Positions 23,931 to 30,800 of a stretch of 64,000 nt of DNA are shown piece after piece. The notes beneath the pieces were generated by a model. That model searched no databases and was not told the origin of the DNA. It saw nothing but the letters and a program-made list of their open reading frames with translations. The translations under genes were made by a program, and so were the position numbers. Every line of letters begins with the position of its first letter. The stretch's first letter is position 1. This DNA comes from Escherichia phage T5: the sequence record NC_005859.1; one strand, written 5' to 3'.

Positions 23931-24084
23931 ATTAAACCTTACTAGCAAGTAAAGAATTAACTACTTGGGTTAAGTCTGCTATTTGCTTTTTAAAATCTCT
24001 ATTAGACAATTAGCTGAGTGTTTGTCATATAATATTGCTATTGAATACCTAGCTCGATGATGTTTCCCTGTAAAATGCTATGTG

Positions 24085-24116
24085 AAAATAAAGGGGCCTA
24101 ATGACCCCTCTTTTTT
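24085..24116. terminator. bidirectional terminator-like hairpin at convergent junction
   Basis: aggggcc..gacccct hairpin flanked by A-run on one side and T-run on the other; directly 3' of tail fibre gene. Confidence 0.55.
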
Positions 24117-27100
24117 ACATACCTAATTTATCCTCAATTGCAGATAACCTCGCTTCAAATCCTTTTGCGATAAAAAGGTTTAACTCTTCAAGGCGGAATG
24201 AGTAATGATCGCCAGCCGGGATTGTTTTGTAGATCGGGTTTTCAGTTCCATCTTCATTTGCAGGGCCGTATTCAGAAACAACCGTATGTTCATCCCATTT
24301 GTCATAGCAGATGAAACCATATTTGAACGGATCAAGCCCAAAACTTTCCATGATCTCAATTGCACGCTGCACGGTCAAACCGCAGTGTTCGCGAATATCA
24401 TTCATGTCAGCTTGCTCCTTCCACGTCCAAAACCCAATCTCCTTCGCAATAGCTTTGGCCGCTTCGGTTTCAGGATCGCTCATGGCTCGAACATCGTTCT
24501 TCAATCTAGCATCGGAGGTGTTAATTGTACCATTTACGGCGTAAACCTGCTTAACCCTACCAGATCCCCAGCCTAAGTTATATCTGTTATCTGCCATCGG
24601 CATTAACGTTCCGTTATGGTCAACCCCCCACCGTGGGAGACGAGAGATGCTTCCAGACTCACATGTCTCCAACACAACCTGTGTTGGCGTTGAAGTTGGA
24701 CCCCACCCCCCAGCGGACTTAATTGCTACACTACCACGCATTGAGTCGAACTTCTCTCCATCATGACCAGACGCACCAATATAGAAAGTCGAACCGGGTT
24801 GTGTAGCGCCAATATATCGCGTCGTATCTGCTAGACTACCATCACACCACATAGCTCGAATAGCTGGCGCCGAGGCCCCAGAACCACGTGGCGCAATCAA
24901 GTCAATCTCTGGTGCCTGGGGTGCAACAATTTTCAGCCCTCGTCCATCCTGTATACTCGGGGCGTTAAACCTAGGCACAGCAGCATTTAGTGTTTCAATG
25001 CTACGCACCAACCCAAGATCTGAGTGCATAGCTCCATCTGGAACTAGCCAAAGATCTCCATTATCTGACAGTCTGAATGCCGGAACCCTATCGCTAATCG
25101 TCTTACCTTTAGGAGTGACAAGTAAACGAATCCACCCCCCGTGATTGGTTGCCGATGTATCGCCAGCCCCCAGGAAATGCAATGCTGCATTGCTATGTTC
25201 AGTATATGTAGAACCTAACCACGGGCGTGAACCATAACCACCTAAAAGCTGGTTGTTCTTCGTTACGCTATTGGACGCTCCGCGAGTGTAGTTATGGAAC
25301 ACGGCAGAACCTCCAGCCGTATTCTCAATACCAAAAGAACACTCCGTTGCGCTATCGCCGATAAAGTTAACGCCAATCCCGGTTGTCGCGGTTGTCTCCT
25401 TCAGTGGTAAGCTCTGTGACGCGGTAACATCAATCTCTTTGCTATTGACACCACCCTTAACAACCAAATCACCATTTGGTGAAAGAATCATCTGACCTTC
25501 CGATATCCCATCACCATTTGGTCGAAAATATATCATTTGACCAGCTTTTGCGCTAATGATTGGAGAGCCTGCATTGTTGCAACGAATTGCCGCACCTTGA
25601 CCAAATGAGATTTTTGTGTCTCCAGCGCTGGCCGATGTGCAAGAAATTTCAACCTGGTTATCTAGCGACGTTGCCCCCGCTGGACGAAGCTGCAATAGTC
25701 TATCAGTTCCGCCAGAGGAAGATAAAATCAATCTACCTTCACCACCTTCACGAACTATAGAGCCGCGACCAATTACGATCCCCTTATCAGACGATGGCAT
25801 TTTTGATGTAGCGCCGCCACCAACACCGAGGTTTCCGTTCAGAACGCCAGCGCCACCAACCGAAAGCTCATTACCAGACAGGCGACCTGATACGCTCATT
25901 GACTTAACACTCACATCTTGGTTCATGCCGCTGACAACAGACTCACGCCAGGCTGACCACGTGCCATTGCTACAATAACGTGTAAACTCACGATTTAAGT
26001 CAGTGCCAAAAAGTCGCTGGCGGTTAGTGAAATCAGTGTCACCCACTTTGCGGATTGACTCGACGTAAAGAATGAAGTTACCACCTATTCCGCTTGGCTT
26101 GTTGGTAATGTTGTTGCCGCCACCAGCACTAACGCACTGGTAAACACGAATCGACCCGGGATCGCTTTTCTTAATCATCAAGGAGTTAAGATCAAGTTCC
26201 TGGTCACTAATGTTTTTAGCCTCCCAAGGTCCGGCGAATCCATTAGTAAAATCCATTAGCCCAGCAACAGAGAAACCAGCATCCATCATCTTGCGCGTTA
26301 CAATCTTGCTGTTTTGTTTATGATCAGGATTCTCACCAAAAGCTAGATCTCCATCAATATCAATACCTAGAAGCTTTGCGTTCATGTTATTGAGCTTGAA
26401 TCCAACCGACACATTAGAATCTGAGTCGCGCACTAACATGATGGGCGTATGTTGCTTACCACTGACTCGCAGGTTTGTAGCAGCTGTGTTTGTGTCATCG
26501 TTGGAAAATTCAGCAGTCCGAGATGAGATCTTATAACTGATCTTTGCATCTTTCGCTTCGATTCGCCCATCGTGACGCACGATAAAATCTCCAGTACTGG
26601 TGCCGTCGGAAGTCTTAGCCCTGATGTGGATTTCGCCAAGTGAGCCATTGTTTGGTGGTGACCAAATAACACCGCGCTCGCCTCCGTCGTTGTTCATGAA
26701 CCACAGATGGGCGTTTCCTTGTGTTGATTTTAACCTGATAGACGGCGTTTCTTTCCGTATATCAAGATCACCTGACATAACATCGCCTGCTTTTTTCACC
26801 TGCGCATCGTTAGTTACGTTGCCAAGTCCAACGTCCGATTTCGACGGTTTGTTTGCCGTGCCGTAGAGAGTGTTGGCGTAAACAATGTCACTTGCAAGGT
26901 TGCGGTCAGTGGTTGCTAGCACCTTAACGATTCCAGTGTTGTACTGCACGTTAATTGCAGCATGGGTATCTCCGCAATGAGAGTAAAAGCCAGAACCGTG
27001 ATCGTTAATATCAACGTTTGCACCTGATTCGCGAGCCGCTCGCCAGTATTGACCGCCATTAGCTTTAAGCTTGTTGATCAAGTCTACGTTGCTCTGCACG

Positions 27101-28305
27101 GAGCTATAGGAAAGACCGTTACCGCCAAGACCGAAAGCGCCTACAAGCATAGCATTTTCAAGGCCCAAGTCTGCCTTAGTAGGCTTATTTACCTGGTCGT
27201 AAATCCTTGCGGCTAGGCTTTCAATAAATCCTGATGGTTGAGTATCTTGACTAACAAATCCTTCTGGAATGTATAATTCAGTCCTGCCAGTCTGTGCCAG
27301 TACTGCAACCCTTGTTTCTTTAATAAAGGCTCGCTGATAGCACCAGACTTCGAAATAGCCATCACCTTCTACAAGGCCGTAACGCAGTTGGTTATCCCAG
27401 GCAAGGTTTGGTGAACCGAGTCGGCGAACACTTAAAAATTTAGTTATATTTTCACTGGTTACCCCTCTTGCATCGTTAAGACCGCGAGCAGATATCTCTA
27501 CAAAGTCAATATTACCGTAACTTGAACCGTAGTTACCGCCATTTGTAATCATTAGCGTTAGGTGACAGCTTACTGCACCTGGATCGGTAAGTTTAGCTAT
27601 CTTGACGTAAACGCTATTGTTGTTTGTACCGACGGGCCAGTCGTATTGCGTTACTGGGCTTACGAGTTCACTTGCCATATCGAGATATTCTTTCGCCTTA
27701 TTCTCTGACGTTTTGGCATTGGTTTCGCTTGTTTTTGCTGCTGTCTCGCTTTTCTTTGCATTGGTTTCTGATGTTTTTGCTGCTGTGGCAGAGTTTGCAG
27801 CCGCTGTTTTTGATGCATCCGCCGCCTGAGCGCTATTACCAGCATTTGTTTCAGATGTTTTTGCGGCCCTCGCGGAATTTTCTGCCGCCGTTGCAAAGGA
27901 AGATGCGCTACTAGCACTTGATGCTGCGTTCGTTTCTGAAGTTTTTGCAGCATTTTTACTATTATTGGCGTTAGTCTCGGAAGTTTTTGCAGCTTTAGCA
28001 CTATTAGCAGAAGCAGTAGCAGAGGAGGCAGACTGAGTTGCAGATTGCTGAGAAGATGTTGCGGAAATTTCTGCCTCATTCTCAGAATCTTTGGCATTTA
28101 ACTCTGATTGCTTAGCATTAATTTCAGACTGCTTAGCTGCAGGGCCGGATGCTTTAGAAGACTCTATCGCAGAGGTTACGTCTGCAGCAGTAATAGAGCT
28201 AATGGAATTAGAAAGCACAACTGTATACTTAGGATATTTACTTGCAGTTATACTATTCTGGTCCATAGTGACCATTTGCTGTAGAATTATTTTAGTTATA
28301 GCCAT
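24115..28305 (-). CDS. ltf: L-shaped tail fibre protein (pb1-like) with C-terminal intramolecular chaperone domain
   Basis: 1396 aa, same length as T5 pb1; N-terminal AKTSETNA-type repeats; C-terminal ...AMSDPETEAAKAIAKEIGFWTWKE... chaperone/autoprotease-like segment. Confidence 0.85.
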   Translation of the reverse strand: MAITKIILQQMVTMDQNSITASKYPKYTVVLSNSISSITAADVTSAIESSKASGPAAKQSEINAKQSELNAKDSENEAEISATSSQQSATQSASSATASANSAKAAKTSETNANNSKNAAKTSETNAASSASSASSFATAAENSARAAKTSETNAGNSAQAADASKTAAANSATAAKTSETNAKKSETAAKTSETNAKTSENKAKEYLDMASELVSPVTQYDWPVGTNNNSVYVKIAKLTDPGAVSCHLTLMITNGGNYGSSYGNIDFVEISARGLNDARGVTSENITKFLSVRRLGSPNLAWDNQLRYGLVEGDGYFEVWCYQRAFIKETRVAVLAQTGRTELYIPEGFVSQDTQPSGFIESLAARIYDQVNKPTKADLGLENAMLVGAFGLGGNGLSYSSVQSNVDLINKLKANGGQYWRAARESGANVDINDHGSGFYSHCGDTHAAINVQYNTGIVKVLATTDRNLASDIVYANTLYGTANKPSKSDVGLGNVTNDAQVKKAGDVMSGDLDIRKETPSIRLKSTQGNAHLWFMNNDGGERGVIWSPPNNGSLGEIHIRAKTSDGTSTGDFIVRHDGRIEAKDAKISYKISSRTAEFSNDDTNTAATNLRVSGKQHTPIMLVRDSDSNVSVGFKLNNMNAKLLGIDIDGDLAFGENPDHKQNSKIVTRKMMDAGFSVAGLMDFTNGFAGPWEAKNISDQELDLNSLMIKKSDPGSIRVYQCVSAGGGNNITNKPSGIGGNFILYVESIRKVGDTDFTNRQRLFGTDLNREFTRYCSNGTWSAWRESVVSGMNQDVSVKSMSVSGRLSGNELSVGGAGVLNGNLGVGGGATSKMPSSDKGIVIGRGSIVREGGEGRLILSSSGGTDRLLQLRPAGATSLDNQVEISCTSASAGDTKISFGQGAAIRCNNAGSPIISAKAGQMIYFRPNGDGISEGQMILSPNGDLVVKGGVNSKEIDVTASQSLPLKETTATTGIGVNFIGDSATECSFGIENTAGGSAVFHNYTRGASNSVTKNNQLLGGYGSRPWLGSTYTEHSNAALHFLGAGDTSATNHGGWIRLLVTPKGKTISDRVPAFRLSDNGDLWLVPDGAMHSDLGLVRSIETLNAAVPRFNAPSIQDGRGLKIVAPQAPEIDLIAPRGSGASAPAIRAMWCDGSLADTTRYIGATQPGSTFYIGASGHDGEKFDSMRGSVAIKSAGGWGPTSTPTQVVLETCESGSISRLPRWGVDHNGTLMPMADNRYNLGWGSGRVKQVYAVNGTINTSDARLKNDVRAMSDPETEAAKAIAKEIGFWTWKEQADMNDIREHCGLTVQRAIEIMESFGLDPFKYGFICYDKWDEHTVVSEYGPANEDGTENPIYKTIPAGDHYSFRLEELNLFIAKGFEARLSAIEDKLGM
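27660..28100 (-). repeat. in-frame tandem coding repeats in tail fibre N-terminus
   Basis: reiterated gcattggtttc.gatgtttttgc.gctgt DNA units encoding AAKTSETNA-like peptide repeats. Confidence 0.7.
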
Positions 28306-28568
28306 TATTGAGTTACTCCATCACTAATATAAACCTTGCCTTCCATAATACGGAAAGAACTAGCAGCACTACCAACAGCTGTTCTAGTAATAATTACATC
28401 ATAGTATCCAGCCAATCTCTGTCTAGGGTTATATCTATCTCTTTCTTTGGATGCTTTGGAAGCAATAGTAGTTACAGCACTAACAGGTAGGCTTATAGAT
28501 GCTACACCTTGTGCAGCATCAACAATAGCTGTAGTAAAAGATGCTACAGTTTCAGCCCCATCTTCCAA
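28305..28568 (-). CDS. collar protein-like, C-terminal fragment (frame 2 of an apparently split gene)
   Basis: 87-aa ORF with weak TTG start; overlaps the end of 28544..28729 in a different frame. Confidence 0.4.
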
Positions 28569-28729
28569 GCTGCTTTTAATACTCCCTCTAAGAGAGAGAA
28601 ATCAGTAAGATCTACTGGTTTGGATGTAGATGGGTAAACACTATCATCTACGTCCATAAATTGCATAAGTAAACCATAAGGTACGTTCTCGTCTACCACT
28701 AAATCAATAACTCTATTTTCTGTACTCAT
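28544..28729 (-). CDS. collar protein-like, N-terminal fragment
   Basis: 61-aa ORF with ATG start; with the next ORF would make ~140 aa if fused. Confidence 0.4.
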
Positions 28730-28733
28730 TATT

Positions 28734-30800
28734 TTACCTTATATGGATATACCCGTTTTGCAGGTCTATCTTCATTTTGTAGGATCCCTCTGGGTTAGAG
28801 GATAGTGCTGCTGCACGATCATATATAATATTTACACCAATTTGTGATAAGAAAGCATTGTTAGCAACAATTTTACTAGCAGTTACCGTGCCATTAACTA
28901 TCATATCTCCGTGTAAAACCATTGCAGGGCTAGTCCACGCCGAACCATTCCACTGTCTAGTAAAAGCTGTCCCAGGAGCACCACTCTTATATTCAGTTAA
29001 TACGTCATATTTAACAGGACCACTGCCGAAATTAGATGTAAAAAATGAATTAGCTTGTGAGTCATTCCATGCTGTTAAATTAGCAATAGCAAGAGAATAC
29101 ATTCCAGGACCACGTTGTCCTGTAGCCCCCGGCCTGCCATCAACACCTTCTGTACCACTCCATTGAACTACGTCAGACCAACTAGTTCCCGATACTAATT
29201 GATTAGTAACTGGGTCCAGAGTACCTGTAGAACAGTAAATATTCTGAGTATTAGATGTTCTATTTGGTGGAGTTTTAGACCAACCAGAAGGTGGGTATGC
29301 AGGACTTGTTGGTTTAGCAGGTAATGAAGTACCTATAATATAGATAAATACTGTTTGCTTCCCTTGTATACCCGTCTGTATATCAATATCACCATTTGGG
29401 GTACCAATTACAACCTCACTAGAGATCCTAAGTATATTACCATCATAACGAATATACTGTGTAGCATTACCAATATCTAATTTTGGTTTAGCAGTAACAT
29501 TATCCATGCCCATCCAGATACCGGATTTTGTATCGCCCCAAGTTTTACCCTGTGTATAAATTGCTGGGTTATCTTGACCGGTTAAATTAGTCATGACAAA
29601 GTTAGCAGCATTAATAGTTTTAGTTATTACACTCCCATCAACGTTAACTATCTTTTTAACAGGGTCAAAGGATATTGGTGCTTTTCCTTCTGCGTCTAGA
29701 AGACCTATATTAATAGCACCAGTTGCAGCGTCAATTAAGAAAGTTTGTTTCCAGGTAGATCCATCTTTAATTTTACCCTTAATGTACGCATAGTTTACTT
29801 CGATACCAGTTTCATTAACAAAACTATTGTCTAATGGTGTACTCTCATTTAATATAAATGTCTGTACTGCGGAATCAGTAACATCTTGAGCATCTGGTCC
29901 CCAGGCAATAGATGACACTTTAAATTTATGCTCTACTTTCCACGGGAATGATATAATTGTTGCCGACTGAGCAGCCCCCACGTTGATTTTTTGTGCCTTA
30001 GTCCATCCAGTTCTTACAAACTCTGCCGAATCTATATAAGATAGAACGAACTCACGAACATTAGCACCCGCACCCCTATTCCAGTCCCACTGCACACGTA
30101 AATCATAACGCTCTTTACCGTCTGCTATGCGCGCAGCTTTAAACACAATATTAATAGGAGCCGCAGGAGGTACAAAGTTATATCTAACTTCAAAGACATT
30201 AGGATATTCATAGTATCCTGATGAATCAATAGTAACACCGTCTGGTAGGCTTATTTGACCAGAAATTCTTACCTTATAGGATCCAATTGGCACACCACCA
30301 AACATAATAGTAGGCATTAGTGCACCAACGTAATATTTAACCCATGGATTATTGGCATTAGAATTATCTTTTAATTCTATAGTGCAATAATCGGCCTCCC
30401 CTGTAGTATCTATATAAACTATTGGTGCTCCAACACCAACATCTACTGGTTCTGACTCGCATCGAGCACCAGTGATTCTAGGTGCTGATTTCATTTTAAA
30501 AGTTTGCTTATCAGATAGATTAATTCCTATCTGTGCATTAAGAAGTTCAGAGTCTATTATGGAATCATAAAATGCACCCTGAACTTCATAAGTTGTTGTA
30601 GGTTTTAAGTTATTAATAGTTACAGAGAAAGTATCAATACCCGTGAAATCCCTACGAGTAACGTTGCTGCCTTCTTTAAGCCAAAATGATCTACCTATAA
30701 CGTCGTAATCAGAGTAGATAGAATGCTGGATATACGCCAACGTATATCCAGTTAAGACGCTATTTAGAACCATTTTAGCTGGTGCATTATTTGAAATCAT
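28734..30800 (-). CDS. baseplate/tail tip protein pb4-like
   Basis: 688 aa, same length as T5 pb4; beta-rich, fibronectin/Ig-like repeats. Confidence 0.75.

Follow-up and report, generated by a model that had tools for sequence, protein, structure and literature searches.

This report concerns the repetitive 5' part of ltfA, the gene for the L-shaped tail fibre protein pb1 (LtfA) of Escherichia phage T5, as it stands in a 64,000-nucleotide stretch of sequence record NC_005859.1, which we call the window and whose positions are used throughout. A preliminary description, made from the letters alone, had marked 27660-28100 as recombinogenic in-frame tandem repeats in the N-terminus of a tail fibre. 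The location is borne out, as the interval encodes residues 69-215 of pb1 on the minus strand. By megablast the ltfA region shares 99.5% nucleotide (nt) identity with T5 st0 (AY692264), where the gene is annotated as pb1, L-shaped tail fiber protein, and window 24000-29000 is a base-for-base match to a 121,750-base-pair (bp) T5 contig in IMG/VR. PHROG 24369, a tail fibre family, covers the ltfA product end to end (residues 1-1396 of 1396). The gene order is pb3-pb4-p132-pb1, and the st0 annotation likewise places p132, a 15-kDa minor tail protein, ahead of pb1. Full-length homology, an N-terminal anchor directly downstream of p132 (ltfC) and a C-terminal chaperone together place the protein among the T5-type pb1/LtfA fibres. 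The repeats in question are very probably the heptads of an alpha-helical, trimeric coiled-coil arm of this fibre. The features on which the argument draws first are the following.

24115..28305, minus strand: ltfA, encoding pb1, the L-shaped tail fibre (1396-residue open reading frame (ORF); phrog_24369; homology to st0)
28186..28305, minus strand: collar-anchoring domain, residues 1-40 (published pb1 domain map, PMC12750041; conserved in relatives)
27652..28185, minus strand: coiled-coil domain, residues 41-218 (published boundaries, PMC12750041; the AlphaFold2 (AF2) helix over residues 40-214 corresponds to 27664-28188)
27679..28140, minus strand: 22 in-register heptads, residues 56-209, consensus [N/A]-A-K-x-S-E-T (sequence layout; identity at offset 7)
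27967..27993, minus strand: AAKTSETNA copy 1, residues 105-113 (sequence)
27925..27951, minus strand: AAKTSETNA copy 2, residues 119-127 (sequence)
27841..27867, minus strand: AAKTSETNA copy 3, residues 147-155 (sequence)
27757..27783, minus strand: AAKTSETNA copy 4, residues 175-183 (sequence)
27715..27741, minus strand: AAKTSETNA copy 5, residues 189-197 (sequence)
27652..27699, minus strand: final heptads, in which large hydrophobic residues occur (KAKEYLD MASELVS PV, residues 203-218), the end of the coiled coil and junction with the hinge

The peptide AAKTSETNA does occur in five exact, in-frame copies, at residues 105, 119, 147, 175 and 189, but these are not the tandem units of ~27 bp for which the preliminary description took them. 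They are non-adjacent, with spacings of 14, 28, 28 and 14 residues (42, 84, 84 and 42 bp), and each consists of the best-conserved heptad, AAKTSET, followed by the NA that opens the next one; the true period is 21 bp, or 7 residues. The periodic part (28140-27679, minus strand) starts 40 bp upstream of the interval first marked, in the orientation of the gene. Laid out in sevens, residues 56-209 run from AAKQSEI NAKQSEL NAKDSEN EAEISAT to AAKTSET NAKKSET AAKTSET NAKTSEN KAKEYLD. When residues 51-215 are compared with themselves, identity peaks at offsets of 7, 14, 21, 28, 35 and 42 residues (33-47%, against ~10% elsewhere), and the DNA has self-identity peaks at 21, 42, 84 and 126 nt. Amino acid identity at offset 7 is 46%, compared with 15.6 +/- 2.8% in 5000 residue shuffles (z = 11). 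Tandem Repeats Finder, run on the DNA of the T5 tract, returned only a 21-bp unit in 3 copies (66% matches) and a 42-bp unit in 1.9 copies (82%).

Two positions of the heptad stand out. Position 2 in T5 is Ala in 19 heptads and Ser in 3, and position 5 is Ser in 20 of 22; in 885 heptads pooled from 39 distinct T5-like LtfA proteins, Ala (78%) and Ser (22%) share position 2, while position 5 is occupied by Ser in 81% of cases and by Ala in 9%. Judged from the sequences, these near-invariant small residues with their 3+4 spacing would be the core positions a and d of a coiled coil. Large hydrophobic residues (Y, L, M, L and V) are restricted to the final T5 heptads.

The predicted structure agrees with such a reading. 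An AF2 model of the monomer, computed from a 15-sequence alignment, has a single uninterrupted helix over residues 40-214, in which 133 residues reach a predicted local distance difference test score (pLDDT) of at least 90 and the means of 10-residue blocks are at least 90 over residues 61-200. According to the published domain map, pb1 consists of an anchor (residues 1-40), a coiled coil (41-218) and a fibre (219-1263); the coiled coil is straight in two-dimensional classes from cryo-electron microscopy (cryo-EM), a trimer was predicted by nearly all groups in the sixteenth Critical Assessment of Structure Prediction (CASP16), and a kink of variable angle is reported between the coiled coil and the fibre domain (PMC12750041). 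In cryo-EM of phage DT57C, a three-helix coiled coil of LtfA emerges from the LtfC collar (PMC10713586), and this DT57C chain (PDB 8hqz_d) is homologous to T5 residues 4-214 (E = 1e-32), the T5 anchor matching DT57C LtfA from residue 5 of the latter onward. The anchor itself, residues 1-40, is modelled with low confidence by AF2 as a monomer.

We considered next how the tract differs among relatives. LtfA proteins came from three sources, namely 12 phage records with annotation, 30 loci that an anchor-domain alignment retrieved from IMG/VR, and three more Klebsiella phages, a sample that conveys the spread and is not a census; a search with the full single protein had returned 9 loci, and the alignment of the anchor domain alone 30. 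The low-complexity filter of BLAST masks the repeats (tblastn and megablast matches end at residue 80), and tracts were measured directly on the fetched loci. The anchor domain is kept in all 39 of the T5-like LtfA proteins examined. Behind it the tract varies from 12 to 48 motif-bearing heptads, and its count and sequence are not the same in all relatives, which was the comparison by which the repeat-number idea of the preliminary description could be judged. Its suggestion that repeat number alters the rod-like part of the fibre is thus upheld at the level of the family.

The length differences respect the phase of the repeat. The regular expression A[KRQ]xS[EQA], applied to 39 proteins as a non-exhaustive test, finds 417 motifs, of which 402 keep the starting frame; 14 of the exceptions are shifted by 3 or 4 residues and one by 6. 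Shifts of 3 or 4 are classical coiled-coil discontinuities. Seven phages have the anchor as well as the heptad KAKEY[LA]D, and in them the two lie 142, 149, 149, 240, 254, 338 and 338 residues apart, always 2 modulo 7. The KAKEY[LA]D junction is common to T5, GEC_vB_N5 (GEC_N5), Tennessee, Spivey, Roth39, GZ8 and SE8 and to the E. coli prophage proteins P0002 and P0006. The tract of GEC_vB_N5 has 22 heptads organised as in T5, and two of the loci compared, L040 and L039, differ by one extra NAKTSET heptad in L040. Within Sugarlandvirus, the count is 34 heptads in Roth39 and 48 in both Spivey and GZ8, the difference of 14 falling within an AAKTSET-NAKASE[VT] array. The proximal block is repeated in Tennessee, Gostya9 and the locus L024, and the junction in L024 is a hybrid heptad in which AAKTSE is joined to N. 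Seven-residue periodicity, a continuous predicted helix and natural insertions and deletions that preserve phase are all present, as expected of a coiled coil.

In some relatives the DNA itself is repeated, with longest perfect repeats of 185 (Tennessee), 65 (Spivey), 60 and 58 nt. Codons 56-217 of ltfA in Salmonella phage Tennessee (L002, OZ075147) contain a perfect 185-nt direct repeat that begins exactly at an AAKTSET unit and whose copies lie 294 bp (14 heptads) apart. The Tennessee assembly was built on 2x150-nt iSeq reads and inserts of 150-250 bp, which puts the duplication at the resolution limit. A different kind of change is seen in GEC_vB_N5 (L003) opposite window ~27716-27757, where the AAKTSET of T5 is replaced by a NAKTSET whose DNA matches the unit beside it exactly; the substituted heptad forms a perfect 21-bp tandem pair, and the tract length is unchanged. 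On its sequence this replacement looks like a small local gene conversion, and in-register unequal exchange between units that code for heptads would produce patterns of length change such as these.

Two records were also inspected for what the repeats may have done to them. The linear record of Klebsiella phage DevonBitter (L055, OR896848) ends 585 nt into ltfA, at heptad 20 of an AAKTSET-NAKASEV array, and the fragment (1-585) carries no annotation beyond 'similar to tail fiber protein'; the assembly probably broke there, at the repeats. A collapse of repeats had seemed conceivable in GE_vB_N5 (L052, MG969412, marked UNVERIFIED, 148,669 bp), where the match is 38 bp shorter, but alignment ruled this out: its ltfA has many scattered deletions of 1-3 nt relative to GEC_vB_N5, which are raw sequencing errors, and no repeat unit is changed.

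Several points weigh against the coiled-coil assignment. The T5 coiled-coil domain is without an experimental structure, as the structure providers themselves state, and the mean confidence of the CASP16 models for it was below 75 (PMC12750041). Our AF2 run was made with a monomer, so the trimer and the a/d assignment come from the literature and from inference. With Ala and Ser, the core would be smaller and more polar than is usual in coiled coils, 15 of the 417 motifs counted above fall out of frame, and the Tennessee duplication, seen in short reads only, could be an assembly artefact. No experiment linking arm length to adsorption or host range was found in the literature searched. Set against the periodicity, the predicted helix, the three-helix homologue and the conserved phase, these points leave us nonetheless highly confident that the repeats are heptads of a trimeric coiled-coil arm.

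As such an arm, the tract would take its place in the fibre as follows. Residues 1-40 would clamp beneath the p132 collar, residues ~41-218 would make up a straight rod of coiled coil holding the fibre out from the tail, and a hinge after the rod would lead to a rigid fibre domain and a C-terminal sugar-binding tip; the tract would be a rigid spacer between collar and fibre domain with no receptor-binding role. Since the tract is periodic, a rod of this kind would tolerate only whole-heptad changes in length, and the reiterated coding DNA would permit in-register unequal exchange. Recombination is the likely mechanism of the length changes, and its outcome across the T5-like phages would be the one-heptad insertions and deletions, the array differences of 14 heptads, the segmental duplications of 14-16 heptads, the gene conversion and the swaps of distal modules. 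The standard helical rise is ~0.15 nm per residue. Calculated with this rise, 175 residues would span ~26 nm and one heptad ~1 nm, and the 48-heptad arms of Klebsiella phages would be ~27 nm longer than the arm of T5. Arm length might have an effect on fitness.

One mutant bears on the constraint of phase. In DT57C, a study of its fibres reports that a spontaneous one-residue deletion of A198 in LtfA abolished LtfA-dependent infection and that recombination with a plasmid-borne wild-type sequence restored adsorption (PMC4728585). In the numbering of 8hqz_d this residue maps inside the heptad tract, at ...SETN[A]AGSAT.... By position, the deletion would throw the downstream coiled coil out of phase, which fits a constraint on phase; in the passages of the original paper that were consulted, phase is neither offered as the explanation nor tested (PMC4728585).

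The preliminary description went further than length, and called the repeats recombinogenic, with variation in their number as a way for host range to change. Taken at full strength, this would mean an array that is unstable in T5 today, with a copy number that shifts often. In its favour, the number of copies varies between related phages and even inside a single genus, perfect DNA repeats of 185, 65, 60 and 58 nt are present in some relatives, and mutants that lack the L-shaped tail fibres or have altered ones appear at high rates in DT57C-type phages (PMC4728585). The DNA of T5 speaks otherwise. The five 27-nt units that encode AAKTSETNA are identical pairwise at only 19-23 of 27 nt, and 57 of the 57 pairwise differences among them are synonymous in the ltfA frame, so the peptide is under selection and the DNA copies are old, not freshly duplicated. 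The longest exact direct repeat in the T5 tract is 15 nt, against 7-13 nt elsewhere in the gene, and ranks near the bottom of the family; the arrays detected by Tandem Repeats Finder are weak. Head-to-tail units of high DNA identity were not found in T5 by Tandem Repeats Finder, by unit identity or by longest repeat, and are present in some relatives (Tennessee with 185 nt, Spivey with 65 nt). Tract length is the same in the three sequences of T5 that were compared, namely the window, AY692264 and AY587007. Given the synonymous divergence of the units and the equal lengths, the T5 tract is not notably recombinogenic, and stable. The sugar-binding domain of pb1 is at residues 965-1263, outside the heptad tract (PMC12750041), and the switches of host range that recombination has been shown to bring about lie in the divergent C-terminal region of LtfA (PMC4728585). 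We therefore consider an unstable host-range array in T5 quite unlikely: few tracts in the family are less recombinogenic than that of T5, and a route to host range finds no backing, the tract being an arm and an effect of repeat number on host range having been found nowhere in the literature searched. The same description had warned of assembly artefacts. That risk is real in relatives (the 185 nt of Tennessee, the 65 nt of Spivey, the break in DevonBitter), but the window itself has no sign of one. That the repeats in the window are an artefact of assembly or sequencing may be thought of, since there are probable local record errors nearby (a p132 frameshift and two odd codon pairs, both described below), yet two other T5 records carry a tract of identical length and GEC_vB_N5 has the same 22-heptad organisation, and the idea has practically nothing left to recommend it.

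Composition alone might suggest a flexible, disordered linker rich in Ala, Ser and Thr, for the tract is of low complexity (BLAST masks it, and low-complexity candidates swamp the protein search) and its core residues are small and polar. A disordered linker would have no need of a strict 7-residue periodicity or a conserved register, and the AF2 helix with pLDDT >90, the straight appearance in cryo-EM images and the three-helix bundle of the DT57C homologue all speak for order; we judge a disordered linker very unlikely. The interval might also be read as an overlapping gene, since an ATG-initiated ORF of 145 residues (27660..28097, minus strand, in the +1 frame of ltfA) does exist, nearly matches the interval first marked, and lies in a frame with few stops in all relatives. 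The +1 frame, however, is nearly stop-free (1-6 stops) in every relative, whatever the length or sequence of the tract, because of the reiterated codon pattern GCN-AAR-NNN-TCN-GAR. The product would be a low-complexity string rich in Q, K, R, L and P, and the synonymous changes (57 of 57 between units) mark the ltfA frame as the one selected. An overlapping gene here is hardly credible.

The tract serves as a splice zone too, at which different anchors, one of them of the lambda-Stf type, meet different distal fibres. Two further features are needed here.

27910..27972, minus strand: homology breakpoint zone, heptads 9-11 (ends of megablast matches; per-heptad identity profile)
27325..27870, minus strand: distal module, residues 146-327, which take in the final 9 heptads together with the hinge and the beginning of the fibre domain (BLASTP against P0002)

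About 25 phages are 88-92% identical to T5 in nucleotides from p132 through ltfA residue 127, and by megablast the homology stops at window 27925. T5 and phages of the SE8 or BB1 type have ~85-95% nt identity over the anchor and heptads 1-10, and only background downstream of the breakpoint zone; counted heptad by heptad against SE8 or BB1, the match is 17-21 of 21 nt in heptads 1-8 and 10, then 4-13 of 21. SE8 retains a KAKEYAD heptad and then continues into a different fibre. On the distal side, residues 146-327 of T5 are colinear with the E. coli prophage fibre P0002 at 70% identity (BLASTP), while the N-terminus of P0002 is an anchor of the lambda-Stf type (PF08400 and PF13620), and P0006 has a different N-terminus on the same T5-type distal module. 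Three E. coli prophage proteins (P0002, P0003 and P0006) carry the T5-type hinge and fibre (KAKEYLD...YDWPV...) on a PF08400 or other N-terminus, which argues that the distal fibre module of T5 circulates among temperate phages. That phages trade segments of their tail fibres as modules has long been known.

The homologue search with residues 1-260, in which the best 8000 candidates by shared words were scored, was dominated by short low-complexity proteins and is useless for length statistics. It did bring to light the chimeras with a lambda-Stf-type anchor described above, and it yielded two other observations. P0032, a 400-residue protein (PF05662 / PF23435) that is a fragment of a YadA-like trimeric autotransporter adhesin, has ~25 heptads of the NAKASET/AAQTAET type. 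P0001 is a partial protein of 362 residues, 98% identical to the pb1 N-terminus, labelled Enterococcus faecalis (NCBI) and encoded on a 1279-bp contig; it is most likely T5 contamination of the assembly so labelled.

It is tempting to generalise, and to see the Ala/Ser-core tract as a register-preserving splice cassette used by unrelated anchors (T5 collar type, lambda-Stf type and others) and by bacterial trimeric adhesins, with a length perhaps tuned to the thickness of the host surface layer. An exchange within a heptad tract would give a chimera that is both in frame and in phase. The contrast in length behind the surface-layer idea is that of 34-48 heptads in Klebsiella phages against ~20-26 in most E. 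coli and Salmonella phages, but the long tracts of Tennessee, Gostya9 and bobsandoy-type Salmonella and E. coli phages weaken the correlation with host. We regard this generalisation as unlikely.

Outside the arm, two features complete the description of the locus.

24118..24516, minus strand: C-terminal intramolecular chaperone (Peptidase_S74), residues 1264-1396 (Pfam PF13884)
28305..28729, minus strand: p132 (ltfC), collar protein gene, onto whose product the fibre N-terminus is grafted (140-residue coding sequence in st0)

The PF13884 match in pb1 covers residues 1264-1323 (E = 9.5e-09, 35.9 bits, cut-off 22), and the chaperone is reported to be auto-cleaved (PMC12750041). In the window p132 reads as two ORFs (28544..28729 and 28305..28568), as opposed to a single coding sequence of 140 residues in T5 st0, the cause being a 2-bp insertion relative to st0 in a (TC)n run at window 28588-28603; the length of p132 in AY587007 agrees with st0. 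The frameshift is probably an error in the record and possibly a real slippage variant. As p132 is needed for fibre attachment, a real frameshift should yield a fibreless phage. Within ltfA, codons 42-43 (window 28177-28182) read D-V here (GACGTA) and E-L (GAGCTA) in st0 and all other relatives examined, and codons 54-55 (window 28141-28146) read G-P here (GGCCCT) and A-A (GCTGCT) in st0 and all other relatives examined; AY587007 has the same overall identity and span as st0, and the comparison of these codons is made with st0 and the other relatives. The odd pairs look like Sanger compression errors, with adjacent G and C swapped or compressed. One would not expect a Gly-Pro where a coiled coil begins.

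For annotation, 27652-28185 can be labelled as the coiled-coil arm of pb1. The T5 tract can be taken as stable, while Tennessee and the Sugarlandvirus genomes need long reads across theirs. Anyone designing chimeric fibres from T5-like and lambdoid parts would do best to join or resize them inside the tract, by multiples of 7 residues. In T5-like phages it is the distal fibre domain and pb5 that determine host range, and no new question is opened there. What the present analysis adds is the 7-residue unit with its Ala/Ser positions, the heptad-quantised spectrum of lengths, the location of the mosaic boundaries, and the contrast at the DNA level between T5, with a longest repeat of 15 nt, and relatives with up to 185 nt.

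The T5 domain is real, ordinary and already described, and a specialist would expect the result. This very coiled coil of T5 pb1 is described by d'Acapito and Breyton (CASP16 target T1257); protein and residues coincide and there is no structural difference, although that account is without the heptad motif, the divergence of unit DNA or the heptad-quantised variation in length measured here (PMC12750041). No dedicated treatment of the repeats in the lateral-fibre coiled coil of T5-like phages was found in the literature searched. LtfA of DT57C (8HQZ chain d) is like T5 in having a homologous anchor and tract; its N-termini are held by a dodecameric collar of LtfC/p132, from which the trimer emerges as a three-helix coiled coil (PMC10713586). 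It differs from T5 in that the distal half of its coiled coil consists of heptads of the AEQAK... type and in that its distal fibre is branched with LtfB (PMC4728585). Salmonella phage Tennessee (Salten), for which an extended coiled coil through repeat insertions has previously been reported, has in its LTFpb1 the same coiled-coil domain and a distal fibre of the T5 type (PMC12639943). It is unlike T5 in its 36 heptads against 21-22, its perfect 185-nt DNA repeat and its short-read assembly. Further afield, gpStf of Ur-lambda shares with T5 a collar-forming N-domain, a trimeric proximal coiled coil (residues 102-393), a hinge and a distal fibre, but its anchor fold is unrelated, and it has four fibres on a 12-mer of Stf N-domains where T5 has three on the p132 collar (PMC12617516). 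The likeness of lambda Stf to T5 described here is one of layout; the heptads, and even the T5-type hinge and fibre start, are carried by E. coli prophage fibres with a PF08400 anchor. The stalks of YadA-like trimeric autotransporters, represented here by P0032 (PF05662) with its long NAKASET/AAQTAET runs, belong to a bacterial surface protein and not to a phage fibre. Fibritin (gpwac) of the T4 type is a trimeric fibre in which, as Letarov and colleagues reportedly found in 2005, coiled-coil length varies by modules among relatives; it differs from the T5 arm in its unrelated sequence, its canonical hydrophobic core and its loop-separated segments.

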